In this document: piece by piece, positions 5,582 through 54,448 of the stretch | Numbering within the stretch: the stretch's first letter is position 1 | Layout of the letters: each line of letters starts with the position of its first letter | Source: Eledone cirrhosa | Taxonomy: Eukaryota | Direction: 5' to 3' | Assembly: GCA_964016885.1 (NCBI GenBank) | Contig: OZ024743.1 | Coordinates: forward strand, 172,298,001 to 172,362,000 | Length of the DNA: 64,000 bases | The notes under the pieces: model-generated | Seen by the model: the letters and a program-made list of their open reading frames with translations, nothing else | What the model was told of the DNA's origin: nothing | The model's database searches: none | Translations under genes and position numbers: made by a program

Positions 5582-5994
5582 TAGGCAGTGACGGATAGGA
5601 AGAGGAAATGAAATGGCTAGACCTACTAGGAGAGCCGCTCTCCACAGCCCAGAGCACTGGGGAGATCAGGCGGCTGTTTGAAGAACTGGATATTGAGACA
5701 GAGCCCTTCACCAGAGAGGAGCTTCAGAGAGCCAAGAAGAAGATCAAGGAGAGCAAGGCTCATGGAGAAGTTGGCGTGGCATCAGAGGTGATGAAGAGGT
5801 ATGATTTTGATATCATCCTGGGGTTCTGTAACCAGGCACTGGAGAAAGGAGTTGTCCCGAATCAGTGGAGGATCAGTAACATCGTCCCAGTGCCAAAGAA
5901 GGGAGATCTCTCTAACACCAACAACTACAGGGGGATCTCACTGACGCCACTTGTGGCAAAGACCCTCAACAGGATGATTCTTAACAGGATCCAG

Positions 5995-13975: not shown

Positions 13976-14175
13976 NNNNNNNNNNNNNNNNNNNNNNNNN
14001 NNNNNNNNNNNNNNNNNNNNNNNNNNNNNNNNNNNNNNNNNNNNNNNNNNNNNNNNNNNNNNNNNNNNNNNNNNNNNNNNNNNNNNNNNNNNNNNNNNNN
14101 NNNNNNNNNNNNNNNNNNNNNNNNNNNNNNNNNNNNNNNNNNNNNNNNNNNNNNNNNNNNNNNNNNNNNNNNNNN
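13976..14175. other. Assembly gap (200 N)
   Basis: Run of Ns. Confidence 1.
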
Positions 14176-22759: not shown

Positions 22760-23518
22760 ATGATATTAAATAAATGGAAACTATATTTATAAAACCATAT
22801 TTATTCTATTATATATATTTCAAGGGTACCAAAACTGTCATTAAGAAAATAATGTCAAATGGTAAAAATAGTAAAAGTATTAAAAATTAAAAAGGAAGAT
22901 CATTTTAAAAGATTTAAATTTAAATTTTTAAAGAAAATTCTCAGTAAATAATAGGATCATTTTAAAGGTGTATAAAATATTAGCAAGTGTAATGAATACT
23001 ATAAATTAAAAATACTTCTGAAAGTAGAATTTTGGCGATGTCTGCAACTAGAAAATAATTCTGTTTTAAGATTAATAGAGTTTTGACAGTTAATTATATA
23101 AAAAATCTTCTCGATACATAAGTTACAGAATCTTGAGAAAGCCATATTTCGGTATACAGGTGCTTTCGAAATCGTTCCCCAAGATATTAAATAGACTATA
23201 TTGTTGTCTTTTAAATTCCAAATTAAATGTGAAAGTGACGTGGAAGATTTGTTATCGGATCTATTAAATGTGTGTTTATGGTTATACCAGCGTTCTTTGA
23301 ATTTTGTAGAAGGGGCACCAATATAGTTAAATATGTTGTCTCTAGTTTTAACTGTGCATTTATAAATTACGTTTAACAAATAATATTTCTAGTTCTAGTT
23401 CTTTTGTTTAGTTTACTATTTAAGTTAAATTGATATTACTATTATTATATTAAATTTTAGGAAGATTTTATTGTTATCTAAGTATTTAATCTTATTCGAG
23501 TATCCTTCTCTATATAAA
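22760..23518 (-). mobile_element. Internally deleted, inverted copy of the adjacent PLE (GIY-YIG 22999-23379, half HHR at 22802-22835)
   Basis: VIYKCTV...YIGAPSTKFKERWYNHKHTF...FCNLCIEK...ELFSSCRH, near-identical to 24352-24726. Confidence 0.9.
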
Positions 23519-25945
23519 GATGACCGGAGGTTTATATCGCGATGGTATGTTAATTTTAATTGAAAATCATAGCAATAGTGAAATTAATAGGAAAAGGAAA
23601 TCCATAATACAATTTTTCAACAACTACAACCTTAATTTAAAAATCGAGAATAATTACAAAATGGTTAACTTCTTAGATGTAACCTTAAACCTTAGCACAG
23701 GTCTTTACTATCCATTCCATAAAATTAACGAAAATCTAAATTACGTAAGCTTCAATTCTAATCATCCTAGAATTATAAAAAACACTATTGTCAATAGTGT
23801 CCAACAACGGATTTCACGCATCTCTGCTAATAAAAAATATGTTTGGTGATAACGCAGAATATTACAATGAGGCTTTACATAGAGCAGGATACTCGAATAA
23901 AATTAAATACATAGATAACAATAACATGACAAATCATCCTAGAATTCATTATAATAACAATAAACAATTTAACTTAAAAACTAAACAAAACAACTAGAAC
24001 TAAAAATATTATTTGGTACTCTCTCCCATTCTCATTAAGCATTAAAACACCTTTAGCAAAGCTATTTTTTAAAGCACTAGATAAATGTTTTCCTAAAACC
24101 CACAGATACCACTCTATTTTTAACAGACACACTATAAAACTATCCTACTCTACTACTATGAACATAGCACAAAATATAAATAGAATTAATAATAGAAATT
24201 TCAATTTAAACCCTAACCAAACAAACCAAGATAGCAATAATAATATTTCTAACAATATTCATAATAATAGTACCGTTCCGAATAACAACTCCAGAAAATG
24301 TAACTGTAGAATTAAATCAAACTGCCCTTTACAAAATAATTGCTTAGACAAAAACGTAATTTATAAATGCACAGTTATAGTAGAGACAAAATATTTAACT
24401 TTATTGGTGCCACTTCTACAAAATTCAAAGAACGCTGGTATAACCATAAACACACATTTAATAAATCCGATAAAAAATCTTCCACTTCACTTTTACATTT
24501 AATTTGGAATTTAAAAGACAACAATATAATATATTTAATATCTTGGGGAACGATTTCGAAAGCACCTGCATACCGAAATATGGCTTTCTCAAGATTCTGT
24601 AACTTATGTATCGAGGAGATTTTTTATATAATTAACTGTCAAAACTCTATTAATCTTAAAACAGAATTATTTTCTAGTTGCAGACATCGCCAAAATTCTA
24701 CTTTCAGAACTATTTTTAATTTATGATATTCATTACACTTGACTATATCTTATACACCTTTAAAATGATCCTATTATTTACTGAGTATTTTCTTTAAAAA
24801 TTTAAATTAAAATTTTTTTAAATGATCTTCCTTCTTAATTTTCGATATTTTTAATATTTTTACCATTTAACATTATTTTCTTAATGACAACTCCTCTAAA
24901 TATATTTTTTTTAGATGTAGATTGATGATCTTTAATTGACATTCTGAAAGTTATCCTCTTTACGATAGTTCTTCGAAATGCACATTACTTTTTTCCTCTT
25001 CTTTGATCTTCAAATTTTCACACATCCTTCGACTAAAATAATATATAATTGAAATTAATCTCACGCAAAATAATATATAATTTTCTCTATATATTTTCTG
25101 AGTAAAGCATTCATCAAATTGAACGGTTAGCAAACAAGATTGAAGTTATCTTTTCCTTTTCAATCGGGCAAACATAAACATTATAATATATGTATGATAA
25201 ACTATATAACTTCGCTAAATTAACAATATTCTGAAAATATTTTCAATATTGTAACAAAATATTTGAATCTATAAATCGTTCTCCTCTTACAACTTCAACC
25301 ACGTGTTTTTTTAATGTAAAATGCAGAATCAACATCCTTCGTAACTCATATGAGAAATGTAAACAACTAATAATTTTAACTTATTTCTATTTCTATAATA
25401 CTTATATACGCACAATTATTAATCTATATAATAATGTAATAAGATAAAATCTACTTACAACCATAATTCTTCATATAATCTAATTAATTATATATACAAT
25501 ATTATAACTCATAATATAGCTAAATAATTTTTAAATTCTGGAATCATATTCCACCATTCCTGCAAATTATTAATTCCTTTTAAATTACCGTAAATACAAG
25601 CTCTTCTTTCTTTTTTTTTCTTCTTCCTACTCATACATACATATATCCTAATTATTTAAATTCTGCATAGCGTCTAAAAATAACGTTTTGTCAGCCCTAT
25701 ACCTCAACCCCATTTGCATACTCATCTTAATAATTTGAAATATCTGACTTTTATCCTCTTTTCCTTCACTATCCAGGAAAAACTTGAACCGTTAAGGTAT
25801 TTTTTCTTGGTTATGTCAATATTTATAAAACAAACTTTGTATTTTATCTGATGAGAGCGTACCAAAGTTTTGGTACCCTTGAAATATATATAATAGAATA
25901 AATATGGTTCTAAAAATATAATTTCCATTTATTTAATATCATTGT
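23519..25945 (+). mobile_element. 5'-truncated PLE: RT C-terminus, GIY-YIG, long AT-rich 3' UTR, pLTR with HHR
   Basis: GLYRDG..., VNFLDVTLNL, SNHP, CNCRIKSNCPLQNNCL, FIGATSTKFKERWYNH, CNLC. Confidence 0.92.
25838..25902 (+). ncRNA. Type I hammerhead ribozyme
   Basis: TATTTTAT CTGATGA(25848) GAG C GTACCAA agtt TTGGTAC C CTT GAAA(25881) TATATA TA ATAGAATA. Confidence 0.9.
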
Positions 25946-29261: not shown

Positions 29262-29934
29262 TTATCTGTAGTGTTGTAATATGAATATTATACACAGTAG
29301 ATGGACAGCTCACGTAGTGTTTGCTCGACGGTTCCAGTTGTAGTTTCAAAGGTAATCCGGAGAAAATAGAAGGATTTAAATGGATGCAGTTCAGTGAAAG
29401 GAATTTATTGACACGTGTTTCAATAACAGTTATAATACCTGAAAACAGCTGCTATCTACAAAGTATTAATTATGCAGACACTCAATATTTCAATGTTATT
29501 TTCAACTACCATTTCATCAGAATAATATCATTGAGAACTTGTTTGGTTTTTATAGACAATATTAAGAGGGAGGAGTGAAGTTGTTAGAAGAATAGTTAAG
29601 GGAGTGGATAGAAATTTTTGATAGCAGTGGGTAATTAGATTCCCATCTGTTAGTTGAGTTTGACATTTTTATAGAATATTCATTATTTGGCGTTAGTTGT
29701 ATTGGTTATTTTTCTAAATCTATCGAAGGATTAGAGATAGTAAAGATATGCATGGTTGGTTTTGTGTTTGCACTTAATTCACATACAGACTTAAATCTGT
29801 CTTTCAAGTGTACGTATCCGTTCGCCCACACATAAATATATGCGTATCACACATCAATCTAAAACTACTTTTCATATGTTGATTTAAAACTGCACTATTC
29901 ACAAGTGTTTTTTAACCTTCATATCATGTCTCCC

Positions 29935-30005
29935 TATTTTATCTGACGAAAACGCAAATGTCATTGCATGATGATATTTGTTTTTGAAATGCACATAATA
30001 AAATA
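29935..30005 (+). ncRNA. Type I hammerhead ribozyme in pLTR (29850-30122)
   Basis: TATTTTAT CTGACGA(29943) AAA C GCAAATGTCAT..ATGATATTTGT T TTT GAAA TGCACA TA ATAAAATA. Confidence 0.82.
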
Positions 30006-30122
30006 CATGGAACTCTTTTAACCATCTTTTGATCTTATATATTATTTATACTCCAGTCCTACAAACTGTAGTGTGCTACTTATCTGCATTGCTTTATTGT
30101 ACTACAATAAAACTCACCTCCT

Positions 30123-30198
<76 letters not shown>

Positions 30199-30239
30199 AG
30201 TAAGTATGTTTTGAAACAGTGAGCGAGGTTTGAAATTAG

Positions 30240-30443
30240 AAAATATATAGCTTTCACCGTATTTTTAACTAAAGGAATTTTAGCTTGATAACGGGGTTTA
30301 GAACCCTCAGATAAATGGAAAAAGATGAGTATTGACGTACATGTACGTCAATACTCATCTTTTTCCATTTATCTGAGGGTTCTAAACCCCGTTATCAAGC
30401 TAAAATTCCTTTAGTTAAAAATACGGTGAAAGCTATATATTTT
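30240..30443. repeat. Perfect 204-bp palindrome with no spacer
   Basis: Centre GTACAT|GTAC region at 30341/30342; the arms are exact reverse complements. Confidence 0.92.
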
Positions 30444-30615
30444 ATATATATATATAATATATATATATATATAATATATATATATATATATGTAGGAGGT
30501 GAATTTTATTGTAGCACAATAAAGCAATGCAAATATAGGATAAGCAGCACTCTACAGTTTGTAGGACTGGAGTATAAATAATATAAGATCAAAAGATGGT
30601 TAAAAGAGTTCCAAG

Positions 30616-30686
30616 TATTTTATTATGCGCATTTCAAAAACAAATATCACCATGGGATGATATCTGCGTTCTCATTAGATAAAATA
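30616..30686 (-). ncRNA. Hammerhead with G5>A core mutation (predicted inactive)
   Basis: Reverse complement: TATTTTAT CTAATGA GAACGCAGATATCATC..GGTGATATTTGTTTTT GAAA TGCGCA TA ATAAAATA. Confidence 0.8.
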
Positions 30687-30725
30687 GGGATTCATGATAT
30701 GAAGCTTAAAAAACACTTGTGAATA

Positions 30726-31430
30726 GTGAAGGTGAACAATAACATATTAAATATTAAATCACATCCTTCCAACACTGAGCGTCATAATAATAGTCGTAGT
30801 ACTCCCAACGTCATTGTTAACTCTAGGCTAGATTCTGTAAACTTAAATACGACGTCAAACATAACTTCGTTGAATGTTCTTAATACCAATCTAAATCAGG
30901 AAACTATTATTCCTATCGTAAATAACTTCTCCAATCCAATTCCTCCTATAAATAACACTAGGTCACTTGTTAATAACTCTGTTAATTTCTCTAATCGTAA
31001 TTGTAATTGCCCTGTTAGAACTAAATGTCCTCTTAATAACCATTGTCTTGATAAAAACTTGGTCTATGAATGTAAGGGTATAACTGATACCAATTCCTTT
31101 ACCTATTTCCGTTCCACCTCCACCTCCTTCAAAGCTAGATTTTATAATCACAACTTGTCTTTTAAATACCAACTTAAAAGAACTAACACGGCACTCTCGG
31201 AACTTATATGGTCCTTGAAAGACAAAAATATTAACTATAACATCTCTTGGAGAAAAGTTTGTTCTGCCTTTCCTTACTTGAATTCCTCCCTATCCAGAAC
31301 ATGTAATATCTGCCTAGCTGAGAAATTTACCATTATATTTAATTTCAATTCTATAATAAATATACGCACGGATTTATTTTCTCTCTGCCTGATTAAATTC
31401 CACAGAACATTCCATAAAGTATACAGCTAA
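30726..31430 (+). pseudogene. PLE GIY-YIG endonuclease domain (5'-truncated ORF)
   Basis: Asn-rich linker, CxC-CPL-CL knuckle, VYEC..Y..ST..FKAR..NH, CNIC..EK. Confidence 0.85.
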
Positions 31431-32651: not shown

Positions 32652-35600
32652 CACTCAGACTCAGAAGCTCCCGCGTCTTGCGACGTATGAGGCAATCATA
32701 GTGTTCCACCGCGTTCGGTCAACAGCCAGTTGCACAGCGTCCCGCCATTGTCTGTTTGTCGCTCGCAGGTCCCTCTCAACTGTCTGGCGCCAGTTCATTT
32801 TGGGTAGCCCTCTCCGTCTGCTTCCCTGTGGGTTCCATTTAAATACTTGGTTCGCCAGTCTCTCCGGGGAAAGTCTCAAAGCGTGCCCAAACCAGCCCAG
32901 GCGTCGCTTGCAGATGGCAGAAGAGACTAGCTGCTGGTTGGTGCGGTTCCTGACTTCCTGGTTTGTTACATGGTCACTCCATTTAATCCCAGGATCTTTC
33001 ACAGACACTTGGAATCGAATGCGTCCAACTTCTCTTGGCTGGTCTTAAGGTGGCATGTTTCACTTCCGTACAAGAGTAGGGACAGCACGTTGCTGTTGTA
33101 GAATCTCATCTTTGTTTTGAGGGTGAACTTCCTGCTCTTCCAGATCTTGACAAGCTGGTTAAATGCTGCTGAAACCTTTCCCATTCATTCTACATTGCAA
33201 TTCACTATCCATGGCGCCCCCACTGTCAATGGAGCTTCCTAGGTAGGTGAAGTTGTCCACTATCTCCACCTCCCCTTGTTCAATGAAAACACTAGTTGGT
33301 GATGGGTGTGTCCCAGATAACATGCTTTTGGTCTTCTTAGCACTGATATTGAGACCTAAGCTTCCTGCTTCGACATTGATATTGTTCATAATGATTTGCA
33401 GGTCAGCTGTGCTCTCTGCAAGTGCAACAATATCGTCCGCAAAGTCCAGGTGAGACAACTTTTGCTCTCCCACCCAAGATATACCCTGGTCTTTAGACGC
33501 TCTTCTTAGTACCCAGTCAATGGCTATGGCAAAGAGAATTGGAGAGAGCGAGCAACCCTGATGCACACCAGTAACCACCTCAAACCAGTCACTGTAACCA
33601 TTCTCTGTCCGTATGCAGCACTTGGAGTTTGCATAAATCTGTTTGATTGCCAAAATGACTTTCTGGGGCAGACCATACTCATGCATGATGCTCCAGAGTG
33701 ACGGCCGATGAATTCTATCGAATGCTTTGGAGAAATCGATGAAGCTGACGGCGAGGGGCCTCTGGAATTCGTTGTACCTCTCAATGATGCGGCGTAACGT
33801 AAAGATCTGCTCTGCACAGGAACGTTTTGGTCGGAACTCTGCCTGTTGTTCTCGCAGTTCCCGGTCTACCATTCCACGTATGCGGTTCAGGATCATCAGA
33901 CAATAGACCTTCCCTGGTATGGAGAGAAGTTGTCACAATCGGCAAGGTTGCACTTCTTGGGGATACAGACAACCGCTCTATTTCTCCAATCTTCTGGGAC
34001 TTCACCCGTGTTCCACACAAGATTACATAAGTGGCCCATCCACTTGACCATGCTTTCGCCTCCTGACTTCAGCATTTCAGCAGAAATGCCATCCATACCT
34101 GGTGACTTGTTATTCTTAACGGTTTTGATGGCCATGCGGACTTCCTTCTCGGTGAAGTCATCAGTATTTATAGGCAACAAACTAGTAGGTTCCTTAGTGT
34201 CTGCTGGCACACGTGACTCCGGTCGGTTGAGGACTTCCTTGAAATGTTCAGCCCATCTGACTAACTTTTCTTCACCCTTGGAAAGCAGCGTACCATCTTT
34301 CGCTTTCACCGGGCCTGACTTAGCTCTAGAGCTGCCGGTGATTTTCTTGGCAATTTGGTACACAGAGCGCAGCTGCTTCCGCCTCCTCTGCCTTACCCTC
34401 AAGCCACATTCGTTTGTCCTTTTGGGCGCTGCGTTTCACCTCCTTGTCCTTGTCAACATACTGCTGATATACTTTGATGGCCTCTGGGGTAGTGGCATGC
34501 CTCTGCTGGTGTAGGGCTTTCCTTTCATTAATCAGCTGCCAGGTGTTGTCGCTGACCCAAGCTTCTCTGAGGGACTACCTGTAGCCCAGAATTTCTTCCC
34601 CTGCAGCTTGCATGGTCTTCTTCATTTCCTCCCACCAATTGACCGAGCCTGGTGCAGACTCCTCAGGGACAGCAAATCAGTTCCTCAAAGCAGCCTCGAA
34701 CTGTGCTTCTGTGTCACCGTTCTTCAGCTTGGTAGTGTCAAAACGCCTTGTAGTGAGTGATCTCTTCTTCTGCTTCCTCAATCTGATTTTAAGTTAGATA
34801 GCAGACAAATAGTGGTCACTGCAGACATCTGCGCCCCGGTAGACTCGGACGTCCTGCAGGCAAGGAGCTCTCCAACTTGGGCCAATCGCAATGTGGTCTA
34901 TTTGTGTCTTGGTCCTGTGGTCGTTCGAAGCCCATGTGACCTTGTGGATGTTCTTGTGGTCAAATAGTGACGAGCCGATTTTCATATTGTTCATGGCACA
35001 GAACTGGACAAACCTGTTCCCGTTGTCCGTGCGGTTTCCATAAGCATGGGGGCCAAGGACATGTTCAAAGCCAACCCTGCTTCCCCCGATCTGTGCATTC
35101 ATGTATCCCATGATGATCAGGATGTCATGACGTGTGGTTTTGTTTACAACATCTTGCAGTTGCTGGTAGAAAGCGTCCTTGTCATCATCGTTATGTTCGT
35201 TGGTTGCAGCATAGCACTGAGCTATGGTGACCTTTGTATGTGATGTGGTGAATCTTGCTGTCAATAGGCGTTCGTTGATAGGAGTCCACTCCTCAAGGGC
35301 ACCACTGTCCATGATGATTGCAACTCCATCTCGGTGGGTCCCGTTATGACGGCCTGTGAACAGGATGGTCTTGTTTTCATGGACAAACTTCCCTGAGTCA
35401 GTCCAGCGAACCTCGCTGAGGCCCAGGATGTTAATTTTGTAGGCCCCCATTTCTCCGATAACTTGCGCAAGTTTGGATGGTTGGTACATAGTTCTTATGT
35501 TCCAATATCCAATACGTGTGGTTGTTTTTGCAGACAGAATTCTGGTCCTCAGGATGTCGGCTTCCTCATCGAGACTTTCGCCGACACCCGTCATACAATC

Positions 35601-36043
35601 TCCGGTTAGAGACAACCGTTCTCCTGACTGCTTGGAATTTAAATCTGATGCACTATGAATTGTTTTCGTAGCAGGAGAGTTTTTCCGGGAACAGGTCGCT
35701 AACCTGAAGCCCAACCACTGACATTTAGTAAAGAGACACTAAGTGGAGTAGTCTCTGGTAGAACTGCAAACCGATGGGTTGCAGGTGTTATATCAGAGTT
35801 TTCCTTCTCCTAGAATTCTGCCTTGACAAAGGCTAAGGGGTCATCTCTCCTGGTGATTTTGGATGGCCATTGACTCTTAAGAGCTCCTTTGCCCTTTGAC
35901 AGGTTTTGTTTTTAGTCCTGCAGGATGTCCAAAGTCACCCTCTTCACCAAGAAACCTTGGTGGGGTTGCCAGTTTAGTCGCCAACGACCCTACCATGATA
36001 CAGGTTGTACTGGGATACGTCAGGTCACCAGTTGGTACTACTG
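32652..36043 (-). mobile_element. Full-length RTE-clade LINE (APE + RT, decayed) with 11-bp TSD GTTTTTGAAAT
   Basis: IGYWNIRTM, LGLSEVRW, QIDHI, SDH, KSPGMDGI, FIDFSKAFD, QGCSLSP, FADDI, FTYLGS, RRLGWFGH. 3' tail CTGAGTCTGAGTG. TSD at 32641-32651 and 36044-36054. Confidence 0.95.
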
Positions 36044-36109: not shown

Positions 36110-38390
36110 TAAACAATTATTATCAGTAAAAACTGATAATAACTCTTTTAATTATAATTCAAACCCCCATACGCCAGATAAATCGAGGATAAGAACTAGA
36201 ACTAAACCAGTCATATGCCCCCCCCCCCCCCTGCTTCTGTCGCAGTTAAAACACAAATCGCAAAATTATTCTTTAAAGCTCTTGACACCTCTTTCCCTAC
36301 TCAACATAAATACCATTCCATTTTTAATAGACATACCATTAAATTCTCGTATTCTACAACCAGTAACATGGCCCAAAACCTCGCCAAATTAAACACTAAA
36401 ATCCTAAAACAAAACCAGCATAATGATATTAATAATAGAGTTAACATAAATGATACTAAACCCAAATGTAATTGTAGAAATAAAACTGATTGCCCTTTGC
36501 AAAATAATTGTTTAGATAGTAATTTGGCTTTATAAATGCACCGTAAAAACTGATCACAATACATACAACTACATAGGATCGACTTTTTTCCACTTTTAAA
36601 GCCAGATTTGCGAACCATAAATGCTCATTCTCGAACTCAAAGAGGAAATCATCCACGTCTTTATCACATCTCATATGGTCATTAAAAGAGAAGAATTTAA
36701 AATACTCCATTCTTTGGACAAAACTTCGGAACTGTGGAGTTTACAACAACTCTAGTATATCAAATAACTGCGCACTCTGTACAATGGAGACCCTGTTTAT
36801 TATTAATAACTACGAGACCCTAATTAACAAAAAAAGTGAATTATTCTCTACAAAACGAGAAAAAAAGAGAGAGAAACATTAAACCATTAAAAACTTGGTT
36901 GTCAGACGTATAAAATCAACAGGGAAAAACTTTAGTGGCCTTTAATATTGTACTATCTTATAACTATCTATAGAAGAAATAACGCTCGAATGAAAGAAAC
37001 TTGTTCAATAACATGCCGGAACATTGATACACATAACATTATTCTGTTAACTTTGATCCATACCATTATTTCTTTTTTTCTCTATGCTTATCTTCCTACT
37101 TAAGTTTTAAATCTGAGTTTTATATCCAACCCTTACATCTTTACTGAACTTATTTATAACTGTGAATTTTTCATGCGTTTCTGATCTCTTATTTATAATA
37201 TGTATGTAATTATATTTTCTATGTTTTTAAATATACCTACCGCATTCTTATATCCATGATTCAAATATAGAGCAAATATCCAAATTACAAATTATTATAA
37301 ACATTATTTTGAACTATGAATTATCCATGCATTTATTATTGTTTTTCTTATATATATATATATGTATTTAACTTTAACACGTAGAACTTTATTATATAAA
37401 ATTATAACCGTTATCATTTACCTAAAGTATACTGTATCACTAATACCTAATATAAGATATATCCATATATAACTCCCAGTATCTTTCTATATATAATTTT
37501 CAGTTAACTTCTAAATTTTTTGATTGTTTTTACTTTGAGCTAGGAATAATTAATACATGTACACACGGTTATATATGGGTATATATTTAGTTTTAACATG
37601 CCTCAATCTATTATTTTATTTTTATTTTATTTTCATTATCATTTACCTAAAATATACTGGCTCATTAATTAATATATATCTATATACATAACCGTTATTT
37701 AAATTTTTCTAACAATAAGTACTTCAAAAGCTTTACATACCTAATACGTTGACAATAACTAACTTCATTAAAGATTACATTTAGGAAAATATTCAACAGT
37801 GTAAACTTTCCTTAATAATGGCCAGCTAAACCCTTTAAATCTTATCATCAAAAAATTCAGAACCTTAGAAATGTTAACACACTTATAAAATTTACAAAAC
37901 TAATATATAAATAACCACCAATTTCTGTTAAAAAAAACTAAAATATTGATTTTTCACCCTAAGATAACATAAATTAAATATTTTCAAACTTAACCGTTTA
38001 ACTTTCGGAAAAAAAATCTCCTTCTGCATACATTACCCCCCTCATCTTTCCCCCTCTCTCTCACTGACTGTTATAATTCATGAAATGCTTTCCTAGATAA
38101 ATTGTAGTATCATACATATTAAAATCTCGATAACTGGTACATTAAGCAACGTTTTTCTTACTCACACATTCTCTATTGAATTTATTGTTTTCGCATTTTC
38201 TCATTATTAGGGTATAAATGTTAAATTTTCTCATAGGTTGATTAAATCTTAACCATTTAACATCTCAGGGTATGTCATGTATCATTATATTTTGTCTGAT
38301 GAGGACGTACTGTTGTACATCCGAAATATGTATAATAAAATGTAATTGATCAAAAGAACATCTATTTTATTAATATTTATATTCTTATAT
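36110..38390 (+). mobile_element. 5'-truncated PLE (linker + GIY-YIG, 3' UTR, pLTR with HHR)
   Basis: FNRHTIKFSYS, CNCRNKTDCPLQNNCL, YIGST..FKARFANH; same family as 1-1525. Confidence 0.85.
38281..38350 (+). ncRNA. Type I hammerhead ribozyme, intact
   Basis: Stem I ATTATATTTTGT/ATAAAATGTAAT (12 bp with GU), CTGATGA 38296, GGA C GTAC/GTAC A TCC, GAAA 38323, loop TATGTA; predicted cut after A38334. Confidence 0.92.
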
Positions 38391-40446: not shown

Positions 40447-40526
<80 letters not shown>

Positions 40527-40717
40527 TAAAATAACAGATTAATAACATATATATATATATGTATATGTATATATATTTGTGTGTATATGTATATATATGT
40601 GTGTATGTATATACAAGAACCAATTCTAATTTTCAATTTTTGCTGGACCGGCAACCGCTCTGTATAATCAATTCCCGATTATTACTGGAATTCTATAAGA
40701 ATCCAACATTCAAAATG

Positions 40718-40805
40718 TTCAACAAACATGGGGAGTGATAAGCTCTGAGGAATACCAACAGTATGAAACAGAGATCTGTCAGCTTATCTCCCTTTGTTTG
40801 TTGAA
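40718..40805 (+). ncRNA. Canonical type I hammerhead with full stem III and long stem I
   Basis: GATAAGCT CTGAGGA(40745) ATAC caaca GTAT GAAA CAG agat CTG TC| AGCTTATC. Stem I extends via GGGA/TCCC and TTCAACAAACA/TGTTTGTTGAA. GUC cleavage site at 40780. Confidence 0.93.
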
Positions 40806-40951
40806 AAAAGAAGTAAGTGACATAGTCACTACTTTAAAACAATAGAGTAAGCTCTTCAAAATGATTTTAATTAAGCATACAGTTAATTACCAAATACACT
40901 ATATGTACTGTCATATATACATCTCTATTTCAGAGCACCAATTCTAATATA

Positions 40952-41178
40952 TATATGGGATAACAGATTATCGTTTTAGGTAATCCAGTTAGAGGTTGTA
41001 AGTACTCTGTACTATGGATAGTTTTAACGTACGGCGTTTTTTTACTCAACAAGAGGTTTCCATAGTTAGGTAACGAGTTTGCGAGAATTTTCATGCAGGT
41101 TATTCTTGGAGTAATAGTAGTGAAGCAATTGTAAATAAAACTCTTTTTGTACTGCCGACCATGTTATTCTTCACTCTT

Positions 41179-41185
<7 letters not shown>
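40952..41185. mobile_element. Short fold-back derivative of the PLE pLTR seen at 3778-4533
   Basis: 40952-41124 matches 3778-3950, then switches at GTAGTGAA|GCAATTG to the opposite-strand sequence of 4300-4367. The same junction occurs at ~46040. Confidence 0.8.
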
Positions 41186-41222
<37 letters not shown>

Positions 41223-41250
41223 AACAAAGGATGGCTAAAAGAGTTCCATG

Positions 41251-41321
41251 TATTTTATTATGCGCATTTCAAAAACAAATATCATCATGCAATAATATTT
41301 GTGTTTTCATCAGATAAAATA
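41251..41321 (-). ncRNA. Type I hammerhead ribozyme
   Basis: Reverse complement: TATTTTAT CTGATGA AAA C ACAAATATTAT..GATGATATTTGT T TTT GAAA TGCGCA TA ATAAAATA. Confidence 0.88.
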
Positions 41322-41681
41322 GGAAGACATGATATGAAGGTTGAAAAACACTTGTGGATAGTGCAGTTTTAAATCAACATATGAAAAGTAGTTTTAGATT
41401 GATGTGTGATATTGAGAAAAATATTTTTTTGTGGGGGGTGGAAAGGATGAAAAAGAGGAGGAGATGAGAGTAAAAAGTGGAGAGGGAGGAGTATAATGAG
41501 GAAGGATGAGATAGGAGGATAGATGGGTGATAGAGAGAGAGAGATAGCTTTTATGACTGAGAAAAATATATTGTTTTACATAGAGAGGTTGAAAAAAAAC
41601 CGTTGGAAGATAATGTATAAATTAAAAGAATTTGAAAATTAACGAAGAGAAAAATAATGTAAAGTTAAGGTTTGTATATTG

Positions 41682-41850
41682 AAGGGTTTAATAATATGTG
41701 CGATGAAAAGAAAATGTTAATATGTATTAAGAATAATATTTAAGGGTTTAATAATATGTGCGATGGAAAGAAAATGTTAATATGTATTAAGAATAATATT
41801 TAAGGGTTTAATAATATGTGCGATGGAAAGAAAATGTTGATATGTATTAT
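41682..41850. repeat. 60-bp tandem repeat x~2.8 in the PLE 3' UTR
   Basis: AAGGGTTTAATAATATGTGCGATG.AAAGAAAATGTTAATATGTATTAAGAATAATATTT repeated. Confidence 0.9.
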
Positions 41851-42644
41851 TAAAAAGAACAGCAAGTAATGTAAGTAAGGATATATTGTGAGATGAGCAT
41901 GAGTAAGTTAGATGAAAGGGAGAAAAAAATAATGAATTGAGGATGAATAATCTAACGTCAAAAAATGTTTATGTTTACGAAGGATTTTTGCAAGGTAATA
42001 TAAAGTAAGAATGTATTGTATTGTGTAATAATTGTTTCTATGTTAGGCAACAGTGAGAAAGGGTACAGATTAGGGGTTAGACATTAAAAGAAAAGAGAAG
42101 AAAGGGAAAATGAAGAAAGGGAAGTGATAAATAGGAGTGATATAGAATGAGTAACAAGTATTATATAATGTATAATAAATAACTTTGAAATAAGGTAGAA
42201 AGATGGGTATATTTTTAAAGAAGTATATATATATATGTGCCTTTGAGAAAAAGATTCTAAATTGATAAAGTTTTGGATATTAGCTGTATACTTTGTGGAA
42301 TGTTTTGTGGAATTTATGCAAGCAGAGAGAAAACAAGTCAGTGCGTCTATTTATTATAGAATCTAAATTAGATATAATGGTAAATTTTTCATTATACAGA
42401 GATTGCAAATCTTGGATAGAGAACTGTTCAAGTATGGAGACGCAGAAGAAACCTGTTTCCAAAACCTTTTGACAAAAATATTAAATATAGCATCTTTTGG
42501 AAAAAGGTTTCTTCTGCGCCTCAAAAAAAAAAAATATATATATATTTTTCCCAATATCACACATCAATCTAAAACTACTTTTCATATGTTGATTTAAAAC
42601 TGCACTATCCACAAGTGTTTTTTAACCTTCATATCATGTCTTCC

Positions 42645-42715
42645 TATTTTATCTGATGAAAACACAAATATTATTGCATGATGATATTTGTTTTTGAAAT
42701 GCGCATAATAAAATA
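42645..42715 (+). ncRNA. Type I hammerhead ribozyme (inverted pLTR)
   Basis: CTGATGA 42653, GAAA 42696, TGCGCA loop; reverse complement of 41251-41321. Confidence 0.88.
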
Positions 42716-42838
42716 CATGGAACTCTTTTAACCATCCTTTGTTCTTATATATTATGTATACTCCAGTCCTACAAACTGTAGAGTGCTTCTTATCCGATAT
42801 CTGCATTGCTTTATTGTACTACAATGAAACTCACCTCC

Positions 42839-44275: not shown

Positions 44276-44311
44276 ATATGCAGGAGGAGGTAATTCAGGA
44301 TGGTCAGGTAG

Positions 44312-44379
<68 letters not shown>

Positions 44380-44415
44380 CTACCTGACCATCCTGAATTA
44401 CCTCCTCCTGCATAT
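44276..44415. repeat. Palindrome centred on (TA)n
   Basis: ATGCAGGAGGAGGTAATTCAGGATGGTCAGGTAGGGGA-(TA)n-TCCCCTACCTGACCATCCTGAATTACCTCCTCCTGCAT. Confidence 0.92.
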
Positions 44416-44923: not shown

Positions 44924-44957
44924 TTTTTCTTCCTAATAATCGTCTTTTTCTCCCTAT

Positions 44958-45043
<86 letters not shown>

Positions 45044-45076
45044 ATAGGGAGAAAAAGACGATTATTAGGAAGAAAA

Positions 45077-45077
<1 letters not shown>
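44924..45077. repeat. Palindrome centred on (TA)n
   Basis: TTTTTCTTCCTAATAATCGTCTTTTTCTCCCTATTTTCA-(TA)n-TGAAAATAGGGAGAAAAAGACGATTATTAGGAAGAAAAA. Confidence 0.92.
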
Positions 45078-45115: not shown

Positions 45116-45995
45116 GTCGAACACTGGAAGGTAATATCCGTAGTGGTAGAGCACTCAGTCCAAGGGACGAGTTAGGTAGAAGTGGTTACACAACCGTTAG
45201 TTCACCATACCGAGAACAATTGTTTCACCTTCGCGGATCTTCAGCTCGGGATGTATATGGTTATAGGAACAGGAAGGACAACCGTACGAACGCGCATGCG
45301 CAGAAACACGGTCACTTCACACAGGCAATAGTAGACTGCGTGTGGGGGGGTGTAAGGGAGCTAACTGCGAAAGTCCGGAAAGTTTTTTGGTTGAAAATAA
45401 AATAAAAAATTTCAAAATAAAATTCCAAAGAATCAGTCTGGAGCCTTGTAGTTATGCAATAGATGTTTGGTGACGTGTGGACAACGTGTGAAAATTTCAC
45501 TTCTCGTGTTTAGGCAATCACTATTGCGTAATCTCTTTAGGATAGTTATTCGTTCGTCAATACATAAGCCACACGTCGGATTTCCCCTTGCGTATGGCTT
45601 GGACTTAGTGATGGCTTTCCATTGAATGGAGTACCCTATACTTGAGTCCTTGAGGGACCATACGTGGCTCCCGAGTTTCGTGGATGAACGTCTGTCTGGG
45701 TATCTGAAGGTAGACTGGTGGTTCAGGAAACGCTCCTTGAATCGGCCCTCCACCATGCCCACAGGAGGTCAAATCCTATGTGGGCATGGTGGAGGGCCGA
45801 TTCAAGGAGCGTTTCCTGAACCACCAGTCTACCTTCAGATACTCGGACAGACGTTCATCCACGAAACTCGCGAGCCATGTATGGTCCTTCAAGGACTCAA
45901 GTATAGGGTACTTCATTCAATGGAAAGCCATCACTAAGTCCAAGCCATACGCAAGGGGAAATCCGACGTGTGGCTTATGTATTGACGAACGAATA
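45112..45995 (-). mobile_element. PLE 3' fragment (GIY-YIG 45433-45762 on minus) with fold-back inverted copy (45773-45995 on plus)
   Basis: YVGMVEGRFKERFLNHQSTF...CGLCIDER..LNTRSEIFTRCPH; the two divergent ORFs are near-identical. Confidence 0.9.
45210..45249 (-). ncRNA. Minimal type I hammerhead ribozyme
   Basis: Reverse complement: CCGAG CTGAAGA T CC gcgaa GG T GAAA CAATTG TT CTCGG; lies downstream of the GIY-YIG ORF. Confidence 0.85.
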
Positions 45996-46106
45996 GTTTG
46001 CGAGAATTTTCATGCAGGTTATTCTTGGAGTAATAGTAGTGAAGCAATTGTTAATACTGTAAATAAAACTCTTTTTGTTCTGCCGACCATGTTATTCTTC
46101 ACTCTT

Positions 46107-46191
<85 letters not shown>

Positions 46192-47110: not shown

Positions 47111-47322
47111 AAATAAACGATTATGAGTTCATGCAATTGACTTATGTTTCGTCACTATTATAACTCCGGGACTTATATCTTCGTTGAGTGCTCCCTATCC
47201 GCATACTAAAGTCTACGATTTCACAGAACTTTTGTTTACCGAATTCGCAGACCAGATTAATAACACACATATATATATATATATTTATTAAAATAACAGA
47301 TTAATAACATATATATATATAT

Positions 47323-47382
<60 letters not shown>

Positions 47383-48234
47383 ATGTATCTATATATGTGT
47401 GTATGTATATACAAGCACCAATTCTAATTTTCTGTTATATCGCTCAAATATGCAATTTTGTATTATAAATTTTATATTAAAAAAATAAAATGGTTATATA
47501 TGGAAGAAAACCCCCTCTGTCTACACTATATAGAACAGCCAAATAACAGCAATTTTACCAAAGCCACAAACTAGATACACCACCTATCCCATCACCCCTC
47601 TGTGTACATTAAATACAACAGCCAGGTAACGGCAATTTCACCACCACCACCACCAATCCCAGCATAATAATAATAATTACTATTATTGTATCTCAAGTTT
47701 TCTCAAAATGTTTAATTCAAATATTAAGATAATATGTCAACACATATATTAAACATACGCGACAAACCGCATAGATATACAGATCAAACAAACCCATACT
47801 ACTACAGCCTATTCAACAGAACTCAGTAACGACAATGCCATCACTATATTCACCGCCGCCACAACTACATTATTGCTACCACTATCCCATCACTATAGTC
47901 ACCGCCGCCACCACTCCTTCATTGCTACCACCACTATTCCCCACTATCTTCTGTTAACTTAAGAAAGTGGAAGGTGGTGGTATCACTAGACAAGGGAGAG
48001 GCTAGCAAAAGATATAAATGGACTGACTTAGTGACCCGGTCAAACGTCAACGACTATGGTACTGCTGGCTCTCCCCTTCCCCACGAACAATAGAAAAAGC
48101 GCCAGCACCAGCACTGACATAGCCAACATTAAAAACAGGCAACTTCAACAAAAAGTATATTATATTATTAATAATAATTTCATTCTTAAGCCACGCAATG
48201 CTCACATTAGGGAACCACTCATGATAATAACAAT

Positions 48235-49725
48235 TTAAAAAAACAACAAAAAAGAAAACCCGTGACCAAGAAATACCGAGATGGCGGCCGGCGGGGAATA
48301 GCCGTGTCTCTAGGGGAGGACGACCCCTCTAGTCTTGGTTGACACTCGTCCTAGAAGTGGTAACACGAAATGATTACCCCTTGGCGGTTAAGGATAAAAC
48401 GCGACAAAATAAAGTAAATGTTAAATGATAAAATCTCATACCGGATCGGCCGTCACCCGGGTCAAAAAGGGCCGCGTCCCTCAGAGAGGAACCAGACTGG
48501 GGTCGAAAAATCAGCTAGTGGTTCAAACCTTCCCATCACTTCGGAGCTGGAGACCTCCCATAACCGGAATACTCCTACTGTTGGCCCTCCATGCTCACCA
48601 CCAAGAAGTCCAAAGAAAAAGAGAGAAAAATGGTCAAGGGAAGACAATAAAGAAGTTCTTAAGGCTTTCTTCAATGTACTACCCATCAAATAGATCGAAA
48701 ACAGAACAGACATATATCAACTGGAAAAAGAAACATCCCGAAAACAGAGGCTATATTGACAGTAACAAACTAGCCAATATGCGAAGAAATATTGTAAAAA
48801 AAAGTTACTAACTGATTTAGAAATTGATCAGATCAAGCTATTAGCACAAAGTCAGCGAAGGCAATTTGAAACATGTGTCAGTGAAAACGAGGTAAATTGT
48901 AACACTTCGAATCCCAGGGTTGGGGCGGAATCACTGACAACCGAACAAATTAAAGAAAGGATCGAAAAAGTGGAGGGAGGGCATGCTCATGATAAAACTC
49001 AAAATGAAAACAATGAGATCGTAAATTATAAAGAAATGAATGAGAATGAATTTGCCAACTTGAAGGATGAAATTATGATCGAATGGATGAAAGAATCTGA
49101 CATGGGGGAACGAGACACTCTCCCTAAGATCCAGAACTCCAAACAGAACCAAAGATAATACACAAGACTAACATAATTCTCAAAAACATTATCATCACAA
49201 ACAAACTAAACATTACTGATTTAAATCATCTCTATTATGCATCAGCTAAAGTCACCATTCACTTATGTGGAGTGAAGATGAAAAAACAAAGGAATTCCCA
49301 CAAGAAACCTACTTGGCAAGAGAACATCAATCGCCAAATAAACCTTCTCCGATCTGACATAGAAATTTTAACAAACTACAAAGTAGGTGAACATGTTAAA
49401 CAAACTAAACTTAGAAAATGGAAAAGAAAACACAGTATAAAATCAACAAGTGACATAGACATGCTGATAGAAATAATCAAGCAAGAAAGTGTGGCCAAAG
49501 CTGCTCGTTTAAGACGCTTTGAAGAACGATCTAGATTCTATAAGGACAATAATATGTTCAAAAACAACCAAAGAAACTTCTACAGAAAAATTGGCAAGTC
49601 AACAATAACTGCTAAATCAATACCACCCAAGGAGGAAGTGCAAGAATTCTGGGAAAAGATCTGGGTCGAAGAAAAAGTTCATAATATACATGCCATATGG
49701 ATAGACAGACAAATGAAAGATACAC
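48235..49725 (+). mobile_element. 5' ~1.5 kb of the R4/Dong element (duplicate, 3'-truncated, frameshifted)
   Basis: Colinear with 50460-51965; ends at ...CAAATGAAAGATAC. Confidence 0.92.
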
Positions 49726-50461
49726 CATCACTACAGTAATATGATCACATCACCACCACCACTGCCTCGGTATCGACATCACCACCACCACTGTCTCAGT
49801 ATCGATACCGCCGCTACTGTCTCCCACATCTCCACGCTGGCTGCTGCCACCACATTATAGAATTACTATTATAGAATTACTATTATTATTGTCTCAAATT
49901 TTAAAAAAAAAATGTTTAATTCCAATTTTACGGGAATATGTCAACACAAAATATAATAAAAATATATATTAAACATACGAACACAAACTCATAGATACTA
50001 CATATCAGTAACCACAACGCCACCGCTGCCACCACCCCACCCCATCCATCATTGCTACCACAATCCCATCGTCGCCGCCACCACTCCTTCAATGCTACCA
50101 CCACTATTCCCCTGTTAACATGAGAGAGAAAGGGGAAGGTGGCGGTATCACTAGACAAGGGAGAGGCTAGCAAAAGATATAAATAGATTGACTTAGTGAC
50201 CTGGCCACCGGACAAACGTCAACATCAACAACTATGGGACTGCTGGCTCACCCCTTCCTCACCAACAATATAAAAAGCCCCGGCACCACCACCGACATAG
50301 CCAACAACAATAACAGCCAACTACAACAAAAAGTATATTATATTATTGTAATGCACTGGGTGATTGCTGGCCTTGTGCCTGGAGTGGAGACAATTATTAA
50401 TAATTTCATTCTTAAGCCACGCAATGCTCACATTAAGGAACCACTCATGATAATAACAATT

Positions 50462-53400
50462 TAAAAAAACAACAAAAAGAAAACCCCGTGACCAAGAAAT
50501 ACCGGGATGGCGGCCGGCGGGGAATAGCCGTGTCTCTAGGGGAGAACGACCCCTCTAGTCTTGGTTGACACTCGTTCTTGAAGTGGTAACACGAAATGAT
50601 TACCCCTTGGCGGATAAGGATAAAACGCGACAAAATAAAGTAAATGTCTAATGATAAAATCTCATACCGGATCGGCCGTCACCCGGGTCAAAAAGGGCCG
50701 CGTCCCTCAGAGAGGAACCAGACTGAGGTCGAAAAATCAGCTAATGGTTCAAACCTTCCCATCACTTCGGAGCTGGAGACCTCCCATAACCGGAATACTC
50801 CTACTGTTGGCCCTCCATGCTCACCACCAAGAAATCCAAAGAAAAAGAGAGAAAAATGGTCAAGGGAAGATAATAAAGAAGTCCTTGAGGCTTTCTACAC
50901 TGCCATGTACTACCCATCAAATACATCGAATACAGAACAGACATATATCAACTGGAAAAAGAAACATCCCGAAAACAGAGGCTATATTGACAGTAACAAA
51001 CTAGCCAATATACGAAGAAATATTGTAAGAAAAAAGTTACTAACTGATATAGAAATTGATCAGATCAAGCTATTAGCACAAAGTCAGCGAAGGGAAAATG
51101 AAACATGTGTCAGTGAAAACGAGGTAAACTGTAACACTTCGGATCCCAGGGTTGGGGCGGAATCACTGGCAACAGAACAATTTAAAGAAAGGATCGAAAA
51201 AGTGGAGGGTGTGCATGCTCAGGATGAAACTCCAAATGAAAATAATGAGATCGTAAATGATAAAGAAATGAATGAGAATGAACTTGCCAACTTGAAGGAT
51301 GAAATTATGATCGAATGGATGAAAATGAAAGAATCTGACATGGGGCAACGAGACACCCTCCCTAAGATCCAGAACTCCAAACAGAACCAAAAGATAATAC
51401 ACAAGACTAACATAATTCTCAAAAACATTATCATCACAAACAAACTAAACATTACTGATTTAAATCATCTCTATTATGCATCGGCTAAAGTCACCACTCA
51501 CTTATGTGGAGTGAAGATGAAAAAACAAAGGAATTCCCACAAGAAATCTACTTGGCAAGAGAACATCAATCGCCAGATAAACCTTCTCCGATCTGACATA
51601 GAAATTTTAACAAACTATAAAGTAGGTGAACATGTTAAACAAACTAAACTTAGAAAATTGAAAAAAAAGTACAGTATAAAATCAACATGTGACATAGACA
51701 TGCTGATAGAAATAATCAAGCAAAAAGTGTTGGCCAAAGCTGCTCGTATAAGGCGCTTTGAAAAACGATCTAGATTCTATAAGGACAATAATATGTTCAA
51801 AAACAACCAAAGAAACTTCTACAGAAAAATTGGTAAGTCAACAATAACTGCTAAATCAATACCACCCAAGGAGGAAGTGCAAGAATTCTGGGAAAAGATC
51901 TGGGCCGAAGAAAAAGTTCATAACATACATGCCCCATGGATAGACAGACAAATGAAAGATACAGCTCACCTTGAGGAACAAACATGGGAAAATATAACAG
52001 TTGAACAGTTGCGCTTGGCTCTAAGAAAAACCAGCAAATGGAAATCCCCAGGAAAAGACAAAATACAAAACTTTTGGATAAATGCCTTCACAGAGTCTCA
52101 TGAGCTGTTAGCCCAACTTTACAATGAAATAGTTAAGGAGCCAGAAAAGATACCTTCATGGCTAGTTAACGGCATTACATTCCTGCTTCCGAAGAATGAT
52201 GAGACAAACAATCCCAAAAATTACAGACCGATAACTTGCTTGACCACAATGTATAACATTTTAACATCAGTCCTGACTGAATACAGATATGACCACCTGA
52301 TAACAAATGACCTATTTCCCATTGAACAGAAAGGGTGTAAACGAGGCTCAAATGGCTGTAAGGATCAGCTTTTGGTTAACAAAATGATACTGGAAGATTG
52401 TCATAATAGACACAAAAATCTATCGATTGCTTGGATAGATTATAAAAAAGCATTTGATAGTTTGCCACACAGTTGGATTGAAAAATGTTTAGAGATTTTC
52501 AAAATATCCCCCGTTGTCAGGAGGTTTTTGTCATTCAGTATGAAGACATGGAAAACGACACTCCTTTTGAATAGTGAAACAAAATCACTGGAAGCTGGAG
52601 AAGTTAATATTAATTGTGGAATTTTTCAGGGTGACTCTTTATCACCGCTTTTATTCTGCATCGCACTTATACCATTAAGTAAAATGCTCAATGAAACAAA
52701 ACATGGATATAAAGTCTATGACAAAACCATTAATCACCTGTTCTACATGGATGACCTGAAACTATTTGCAAAAAATGATGAACAATTGCAAGGGCTATTA
52801 TCCACTGTGAAGCAGTTCAGTGATGACATTAGAAGGAGTTTGGACTAGATAAATGCGCCAAATCAACGTTCACCAGAGGAAAGCTGCTGAAGAGTTCAGA
52901 CATTAATCTTGATCGGGGGAACGTGATAAGAGAACTTGATCAAGAAAAAACTTACAAATATCTAGGTGTTTGTGAAGGAGACGGAATCAAGCACTCGACA
53001 ATGAGGGAAAGGATAAGGAAGGAATGTTACCGCAGAGTAAGATCAATCATAAGAACGGAATTGAATGCAAGGAATAGGATCGATGCCATAAACACGCTTG
53101 CCATACCAGTAGTAACCTACAGTTACAATGTCATCAACTGGTCAAGCACAGAGATCCGTAGGCTCGATACAAACATTCGAAAATTCTTAACCATGCACAG
53201 AATGCATCACCCTAAGGCAGATATAGATAGAATATATCTCTCTAGGAAAGAAGGAGGACGTGGGTTAATCCAGTTAGACATTGCGTTGAAAACTGCAACA
53301 ATTGGATTATCTACATATCTAAGGGAATCACAAGATTGGATGATCAAACTCGTTTTGAAACACGAAGCACCAAAAGATCATATTCCATTACAAAAGATGC

Positions 53401-54448
53401 ACAAAGATACAGTAATGGACTACAAATTTCAGAAGTCCCATTTACTGCTGAAATGGAAAACACAGAAAAAGCAAAGCAGGTAAAAGTAACTGCAAAGAAA
53501 GAACTGCTACAGAAACTGGCTAAGAAATTGCAAGAAAAACCTCTGTATGGAAAATACCCAGAACGAGCTAACAATCCTGATGTTGACAAAACCTTAACCT
53601 GTCAGTGGTTGGCATCCTCTGGACTGAAATCGGAGACTGAAGGACTGATTATATCAGCACAAGATCAGTGTCTGCCAACAAAAAATTACCAAGCCAACAT
53701 AATAAAAAATGGATGCAGCCCATTATGCCGTGTATGCAAAAAACAACCAGAGACCATTGACCATATAATTTCAATGTGCAGTCCTATAGCTCCAACCGAA
53801 TACCTAAACAGGCATGACAGAGCTGCACAATACATACATTGGATAATGTGTAAGCATTTTGACCTGCCCCATCAAAAGAATTGGTGGGAGCATCAACCAC
53901 CTCCCACACTTGAAAAAGATCACATCTCAATCTTGTGGAACTTTAGCATCCAAACAGACCGAAAAATAGATGCAAACAGACCTGATATAATATTGAAAGA
54001 CTTTCAAAAGAGGGTATGCCTGCTAATTGATATGTCTGTTCCAATAGACAAGAATGTATCTATAAAAACATTTGAAAAATTGAGCAAGTATAAGGACCTG
54101 AAGATAGAAATTGGAAAAATGTGGAAATTGAGAACTAAAACAATACCAGTGGTTGTAGGCGCTCTGGGAATGATACCTAAGGGGTCTAATGATTACTTAT
54201 CGCAAATCCCAGGAAACCCGCGTATAGGAGAAATACAAAAGATAGTACTAATGGGAACTGCCCATATACTAAGGAAGATTCTGTCAATATAAGTACATCA
54301 CAAGTCTAAACACTAAAGATGCATGTGTGAATATGTATGTTCTTTCTTGAACATGGCGGACCTTTTTGTCTCTTGAGGTCACTGGTTGTGACTTGGTGAT
54401 AACTCGTATGAACATAAAGCAAGATAAATGCAACTATAATAATAATAA
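50462..54448 (+). mobile_element. Near-full-length R4/Dong-clade non-LTR retrotransposon with (TAA)n 3' end
   Basis: Single ORF with RT and RLE; the 3' end runs into TAATAATAATAAT at ~54437. Confidence 0.93.
50644..54292 (+). pseudogene. R4-type RT-RLE polyprotein, two frameshifts (~52835, ~53375)
   Basis: WKSPGKD, NYRPITCL, EQKGC, WIDYKKAFDS, GIFQGDSLSP, FYMDDLKL, YKYLG, GGRGL, CRVC..ETIDHI..C, RHD, RPDI..LIDMSV, K..KY. Confidence 0.93.

Follow-up and report, generated by a model that had tools for sequence, protein, structure and literature searches.

The window (the whole stretch of 64,000 nucleotides analysed here) very probably holds a lone, diverged monomer of a multi-copy, head-to-tail family of 318-bp non-LTR retrozymes, which the enzymes of a Penelope-like element (PLE) likely inserted into a (TA)n tract. 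The copy is circularly permuted with respect to the ribozyme cleavage site, with 162 nt before the site and 168 nt after it. At the DNA level it shares with known retrozymes a hammerhead with loop 1–loop 2 elements, size, GC content, lack of coding sequence, head-to-tail copies, a strong fold and co-existence with PLEs. The original prediction had offered a retrozyme or circular-RNA-producing element, or else the solo pseudo-LTR (pLTR) of another PLE clade; the first of these is now supported at the DNA level and the second is disfavoured.

The 318-bp unit and its hammerhead ribozyme

The unit is non-coding, with a longest stop-to-stop frame of 48 codons and a longest frame from an ATG of 28 amino acids, and, as had been predicted, no open reading frame (ORF) lies next to it: no reverse transcriptase (RT) or GIY-YIG piece adjoins it, the nearest being at 42283–42461 (minus strand) and 36413–36849 (plus strand). 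Its length of 318 bp and GC content of 33% fall within the retrozyme criterion of 150–450 bp and <50% GC. No tRNA was found in the unit, its sense strand has no match to a Pol III A or B box and no octamer, and self-BLAST of the window gave no long terminal repeat at the unit. The direct repeat said to bracket the unit is present, as ACCAATTCTAAT at 40619 and 40937 (a spacing of 318); the same 12-mer is found at 47417 and nowhere else in the window.

Within the unit we find the anatomy claimed for a textbook type I hammerhead, including the GUC site at 40780 and 4-bp stems II and III (Table 1). Proximal stem I comprises 6 bp (TAAGCT/AGCTTA) and leads into internal loop 1 (GUGA : UCUC); the interruption of stem I previously described as a GT bulge is real, and its position identifies it more precisely as internal loop 1 of a Schistosoma-type fold. 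A pattern scan of both strands for stem I ≥5, stem II ≥4 and stem III ≥4 matched only this site in the window, and 300 dinucleotide shuffles of the window gave no match on either strand at the same settings. The hammerhead is also, as reported, unlike the others in the window, being the only one with a 4-bp stem III; in the other nine of the ten hammerhead-like motifs listed (stem I ≥5) a 6-nt segment replaces stem III, and seven of the nine segments are perfect palindromes, a form reported for metazoan PLEs (PMC4209133). Searches with Rfam gave no hammerhead family at E≤1 for the whole window or at E≤10 for 40690–40830 (141 bp), and sub-threshold miRNA-type matches only, on hairpins and TA repeats; the call is made from the core sequence, the stems and covariation, with no Rfam score behind it. 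Exact-pattern scans, which are insensitive, had no matches in viral contigs and none in metagenome contigs, and there is thus no sign there of an exogenous viroid-like origin.

Table 1. Features of the retrozyme copy, its hammerhead and its surroundings (window positions; X1 is a public contig set described below).
Positions	Strand	Feature	Basis
40459–40618		Left flank: (TA)n/(TG)n microsatellite containing a small non-repetitive island	
40619–40948	+	Retrozyme copy: one 318-bp monomer plus 12 bp of terminal redundancy (15 bp with one mismatch)	
40619–40630	+	Left ACCAATTCTAAT: end of the preceding, 5'-truncated unit	38 X1 contigs run leftwards into the unit 3' end
40718–40805	+	Type I hammerhead of canonical form, with stem I extended and stems II and III of 4 bp	Sequence and stems
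40718–40744/40781–40805	+	Stem I	Sequence
40735–40790	+	Predicted tertiary contact of internal loop 1 (GUGA 40735–40738 : UCUC 40787–40790) with loop 2 CAACA (40756–40760)	Comparison with Schistosoma
40745–40751	+	Catalytic core CTGAGGA (CUGAGGA, positions 3–9)	Sequence
40752–40755/40761–40764	+	Stem II ATAC/GTAT, 4 bp, loop CAACA (40756–40760)	Sequence
40765–40767	+	Conserved GAA	Sequence
40768–40771/40776–40779	+	Stem III ACAG/CTGT, 4 bp including A15.1–U16.1, loop AGAT	Sequence
40780	+	C17 of GUC triplet; predicted cleavage between 40780 and 40781	Sequence
40841–40847/40923–40929	+	Predicted long-range helix; 40846:40924 is A-U here, C-G in most copies	
40937–40948	+	Right ACCAATTCTAAT: recurrent 3' terminus of family insertions	Loose-end table
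40947–40956		(AT)5 tract abutting the unit 3' end; inferred target	
40952–41220		Neighbouring unrelated repeat, outside the unit; matches 200-bp inverted arms 3778–3979/4332–4533	
47269–47432	+	Left-flank duplicate and first ~19 bp of the unit junction, then unrelated sequence	

The unit is predicted to fold more stably than its shuffles, both as a linear molecule (z = -5.65) and as a circle (z = -4.6, with none of 100 shuffles as stable). The active hammerhead lies about 1 kcal/mol above the minimum free energy (MFE) structure, in the isolated domain as in the 318-nt circle, the domain MFE being a misfold 1 kcal/mol below the active form. In the predicted fold, the long-range helix 40841–40847/40923–40929 and a second helix, 40657–40662/40931–40936, bring the ends of the unit together. 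The former, which contains the pair 40846:40924, is part of the linear MFE structure and absent from the circular one, and is 2.4 kcal/mol worse when enforced together with the active ribozyme.

Head-to-tail copies and variation in public sequencing runs

A search of public runs listed 13, of which eight contain part of the stretch (share 0.07–0.40, five organism labels); there was no RNA run among those listed as containing it, which speaks neither for nor against expression. Four of the 13 were aligned to 40596–41000 at 80% likeness: X1 (contigs, organism A), X4 (organism B), X5 (organism C) and X11 (genomic RAD reads, organism A); the small-share runs X6, X7 and X8 were excluded. We aligned 4080 contigs from X1, 36 from X4 and 6 from X5, and 5133 reads from X11, counts that also take in sequences from the end of the neighbouring repeat. 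Summed depth in X1 shows a highly repeated family: it reaches about 3e5 across the unit, compared with about 1e5 for the neighbouring repeat and 5.9 for the left flank, and is not a copy number.

Two joints with a period of 318 bp connect the unit to itself head to tail. One runs from 40936 back to 40619 and is present in two X1 contigs and in one X4 contig, with 65 letters on its short side; the other runs from 40949 to 40635 with three letters between and is present in nine X1 contigs, one X4 contig and eight X11 reads (6+2, with three starts). Joints are thereby found in three of the four runs, one of which (X11) is recorded as genomic DNA, and among the six aligned contigs of X5 there is none. 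Where X1 contigs depart from the unit before 40619 or before 40635 (38 contigs each), the consensus of the departing sequence is the 3' end of the unit itself. An absence of multimers had been named as what would speak against a retrozyme, and the 318-bp junctions in X1, X4 and X11 show the reverse; together with a non-coding, strongly folded unit of low GC content and the co-occurrence of PLE fragments, they support the retrozyme reading at the level of DNA. Two consecutive complete hammerheads are spanned by none of the pieces listed (22 of 4209), and the locus itself has one. Molecule ends in X11 at 40635, 40689–40692 and 40869–40872 coincide with AATT sites and were rejected as cuts by the library enzyme, and 437 low-agreement X11 loose ends before 40635 were dropped likewise. 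AATT sites inside the junction probably depress the X11 joint count.

The depth over the hammerhead region falls in X1 and is comparable to that of the rest of the unit in X11. Loose ends over this region retain ribozyme strands, and we infer that the drop in X1 reflects divergent subfamilies rather than loss. A sister repeat in X4 and X5 shares only the junction region (40623–40661) and then continues into the same different sequence in both organisms (B and C), with loose ends of 255 and 169 letters; the X5 contig is 340 nt long at a depth of 48.5, and the depth in X4 is about 450. It may represent a second family of retrozymes or point to a longer parent element.

Variation among the copies was assessed from 40 of 152 variants listed, with 35 of the positions lying inside the unit. 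Among these, none of the 35 positions falls in the conserved core, and three predicted pairs survive through changes in both partners: 40752:40764 (A-U to G-C, the 10.1–11.1 pair), 40722:40801 and 40846:40924 (permutation P = 0.005 for random placement, again for the 40 of 152 listed). The changes at 40846:40924 must co-occur, since both sites are near-fixed in X1 (99% and 97%), and those at the other two pairs are unphased. On the opposing side, ten of the one-sided variants listed disrupt pairing in the fold of the window copy, three preserve it and 16 fall at unpaired positions. As far as sequence comparison goes, the variant-free core among the variants listed and the paired changes that keep the stems point to selection on the RNA.

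Position 40738, predicted to be extrahelical, is A in the window copy and C in most family copies (3176 of 3388 depth in X1, 246 of 359 reads in X11 and one contig in X4; C is absent from X5). The window copy thus has A10.1–U11.1 and an A at 40738, as against the preferred G-C and pyrimidine, and it has both partners of the predicted loop pairing, U40787 and A40760. An X4 contig with a loose end behind 40736 carries a U3...A8 core, stem II GTAC/GTAC and a loop 2 of CAATCA, which is close to the Schistosoma loop; covariation at U3–A8 has been reported (PMC4209133). Overall, the window copy differs from at least 90% of the X1 depth at 17 of the 35 listed positions; it may be an old or rare variant, or organism A may be merely a relative of the species of the window.

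The 3' terminus, Penelope-like elements and alternative explanations

Copies of the family end recurrently at about 40948, a point that lies 168 nt beyond the cleavage site and abuts (TA)n, since loose ends behind 40956 run into further AT repeats (79 contigs in X1, 292 reads in X11 and one in X4, among the 24 of 424 loose-end rows listed). At the window locus, the (TA) tract could instead be part of the neighbouring repeat. Targeting of (TA)n is reported for PLEs with a cysteine linker, as are 5'-truncated, partially tandem and inverted copies (PMC8557442), and the hammerheads of metazoan PLEs are described as minimal or as having a small palindromic helix III (PMC4209133).

GIY-YIG fragments occur at seven places in the window and minimal hammerheads at nine. 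An ORF at 30723–31427 resembles GIY-YIG clusters (atlas score 0.97), and tblastn places related fragments near 23.0–23.4, 24.3–24.7, 28.0–28.3, 36.4–36.8, 42.3–42.5 and 45.4–46.0 kb; ORF-wise Pfam scans did not recognise the GIY-YIG fragments. A comparison of the unit with the PLE ends in the window (blastn, word size 7) gave no detectable homology. We considered Naiads as the identity of the window PLEs and rejected it, as Naiads are described as having an N-terminal endonuclease and no hammerheads (PMC8557442). Inverted repeats at 22836–24889, 29870–30751, 41205–42760 and 45547–45995 overlap GIY-YIG fragments, minimal hammerheads or both, and look like inverted, 5'-truncated PLE insertions. 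Two perfect palindromes (100%) centred on (TA)n, at 44276–44415 and 44924–45077, are young hairpin elements or assembly artefacts. Elsewhere in the window there are a fragmented Helitron-like element (17912–21782, minus strand, with PIF1 helicase and Helitron_like_N matches), LINE-type RT fragments (RVT_1; 47675–54292, 33159–35738 and 4545–5665), a LINE-type element at 50.6 kb with a tandemly duplicated 5' part (2.1 kb, 88%), and an assembly gap of 200 N (13976–14175).

An alternative explanation, which we consider improbable, is that the unit is the pLTR or 3' end belonging to an autonomous PLE family whose hammerhead is unusually canonical, the locus being 5'-truncated and the junctions partial tandems. 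The junctions lead back into the unit, and eight X1 pieces listed tile 40650–40953 unbroken, although unexplained loose ends at 40661 (X4 and X5, 169–255 letters) and 40705 (X1) enter other sequence. The fixed 3' end at (TA)n would suit a pLTR, as would the run from core to TA of 202 nt, which resembles that of six of the 13 other hammerhead-like cores examined (166–209 nt), and a recent preprint reports pLTR homology for 21 PLEs among Xenopus retrozyme matches (Li et al. 2026). At the window locus, however, neither an RT nor a GIY-YIG piece lies next to the unit, and the 4-bp stem III is non-palindromic, whereas metazoan PLE hammerheads are described as minimal or palindromic (PMC4209133).

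Less probable still is a satellite amplified at the DNA level by unequal exchange or extrachromosomal circles, with the copy as a recombination remnant and the ribozyme as an inherited passenger. Recombination would not yield a recurrent 3' end at (TA)n, and a core that is invariant among the listed variants, with paired changes that keep the stems, argues for selection on the RNA; the high summed depth, the tandem junctions and the departure of the window copy from the bulk of the X1 depth are nevertheless what a satellite would also give, and local tandem amplification by unequal crossover is discussed in the preprint of Li et al. 2026.

The left flank bears on the nature of the 12-bp bracket. 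Positions 40459–40634 and 47269–47432 match at 81% identity, and the earlier statement that the left flank recurs near 47 kb without the hammerhead unit holds for the recurrence, but the second segment carries about 19 bp of the unit junction. It has AGCACC, as does the 3' end of the unit, where the left end of the copy at 40619 has AGAACC. We conclude that the locus is a 1.04-mer and that the bracket is terminal redundancy rather than a target-site duplication (TSD), because the 12-mer is sequence of the repeat itself and makes up the tandem junction. Under a criterion of a TSD >4 bp, the 12-bp bracket is itself unit sequence, and the TA-repeat flanks make any TSD unreadable. The most fitting reading of the segment at 47269–47432 is a 5' junction that was duplicated and subsequently cut off, rather than an empty site. 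A 306-bp element with a 12-bp TSD and a paralogous empty site at 47414–47432, as the original prediction may have meant, is largely refuted and very improbable: the 12-mer does stand on either side of the unit, and its single further occurrence, at 47417, follows the same left flank, but depth over its region is as high as elsewhere in the unit, the region lies in the tandem junction in X1, X4 and X11, and the 47-kb segment continues like the left end (TTTC) and not like the right flank.

A TA-flanked repeat with inverted arms of about 200 bp (3778–4533; also 40952–41220 and 45995–46148) is highly repeated in X1 and X11 and may be MITE-like or PLE-type. The end of this repeat and the island of the flank share ATAACAGATTA, the island sites being 1592, 40363, 40531 and 47293. 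A 9-mer common to 47436–47444 and the 3' region of the family was taken to be a chance match.

Proposed mobilisation and relation to known systems

Returning to the retrozyme as the preferred reading, we propose that dimeric or multimeric read-through transcripts would be cut at 40780/40781 by successive hammerheads to give 318-nt monomers and that, on the model of other retrozymes (PMC7229834), a host ligase would close these into circles. The RT/GIY-YIG endonuclease of a PLE would nick (TA)n, with priming always at the position 168 nt downstream of the site of cleavage, and reverse transcription would pass the cleavage/ligation site and stop once 12–15 nt of the next round had been copied. 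Given a copy that runs across the cleavage site, starts and ends far from it and exceeds one unit, the template would have been a circle or an uncleaved multimer and not a cleaved linear monomer, and a circular or multimeric RNA template has been modelled for retrozymes (PMC7229834; PMC7761336). With one ribozyme, the locus could cut a passing transcript once and would not release a circle. We tentatively put forward as a real possibility that the family bears its mobiliser's integration footprint, consisting of a fixed start of reverse transcription, (TA)n targets and copies slightly longer than one unit.

Animal retrozymes are a known class, and the 318-bp family is an added metazoan non-LTR retrozyme, expected rather than surprising; supplements to the retrozyme papers could already list it. 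The mobilising retroelement and the template of animal retrozymes have so far only been proposed (PMC7229834; PMC7761336; 2026 preprint), and no report of retrozymes with a fixed 3' end at (TA)n was found in a search of main texts, mostly of open-access papers. With its recurrent 3' end at (TA)n and its copies longer than one unit, in a genome full of (TA)n-flanked PLE fragments, the 318-bp family makes the questions of mobiliser and template accessible to flank analysis alone. If true, the footprint would be direct genomic evidence for in-trans retrotransposition of hammerhead circular RNAs by a (TA)n-targeting PLE in the absence of pLTR homology, and it would mark out the RNA site recognised by the PLE enzyme. 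The natural variants at positions of tertiary contact (40738, 40752:40764 and the U3–A8 core) offer ready comparisons for ribozyme activity.

The hammerhead is closest in its details to that of Schistosoma mansoni Sm-alpha, in which loop 1 is UCCA:GUAC and loop 2 CAAAUA, the 5' U of loop 1 pairs with the last A of loop 2, and the last position is an extrahelical C (PMC2632901). Both have a 6-bp proximal stem I, a 3'-strand loop starting with UC and a loop 2 of the form CAA...A; the window copy has UCUC:GUGA (GUGC in most copies) and CAACA in place of the Schistosoma loops. It differs in having a pentaloop rather than a hexaloop 2 and, in the window copy, A-U rather than G-C at 10.1–11.1, and the unit has neither a tRNA nor a sense-strand Pol III A/B-box match. 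The hammerheads of metazoan PLE pLTRs are similarly of type I, and they likewise have a 3' end about 200 nt from the core, (TA)n targets and partial tandems (PMC4209133; PMC8557442), but they follow an RT–GIY-YIG ORF, whereas the unit has no ORF and a 4-bp non-palindromic stem III.

The closest relatives as whole elements are the metazoan non-LTR retrozymes described by Cervera & de la Pena 2020 (PMC7229834) from coral (220–245 bp), mussel (350–390 bp) and axolotl (330/350 bp). Like them, the 318-bp family has a canonical hammerhead of type I within a self-paired, non-coding unit of low GC content and 150–450 bp, occurs in tandem copies, and coexists with PLEs that bear minimal hammerheads. 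It differs in that the window locus is a monomer and known here from DNA alone, and in its fixed 3' end at (TA)n, of which no mention was found in PMC7229834. The 'active' class of Li, Clavereau & Pollet 2026 (bioRxiv 10.64898/2026.07.22.740005) calls for two consecutive complete hammerheads, which the window locus lacks, and in vitro cleavage was reported for one of nine predicted Xenopus dimers, the other eight failing, so that prediction does not equal activity. Their evidence for mobilisation consists of co-occurrence and pLTR homology in Xenopus, whereas here it is an insertion-site signature, with no pLTR homology in the window. They also report that dispersed solo monomers of tandem families are common and propose a PLE origin, and both points fit the locus described here.
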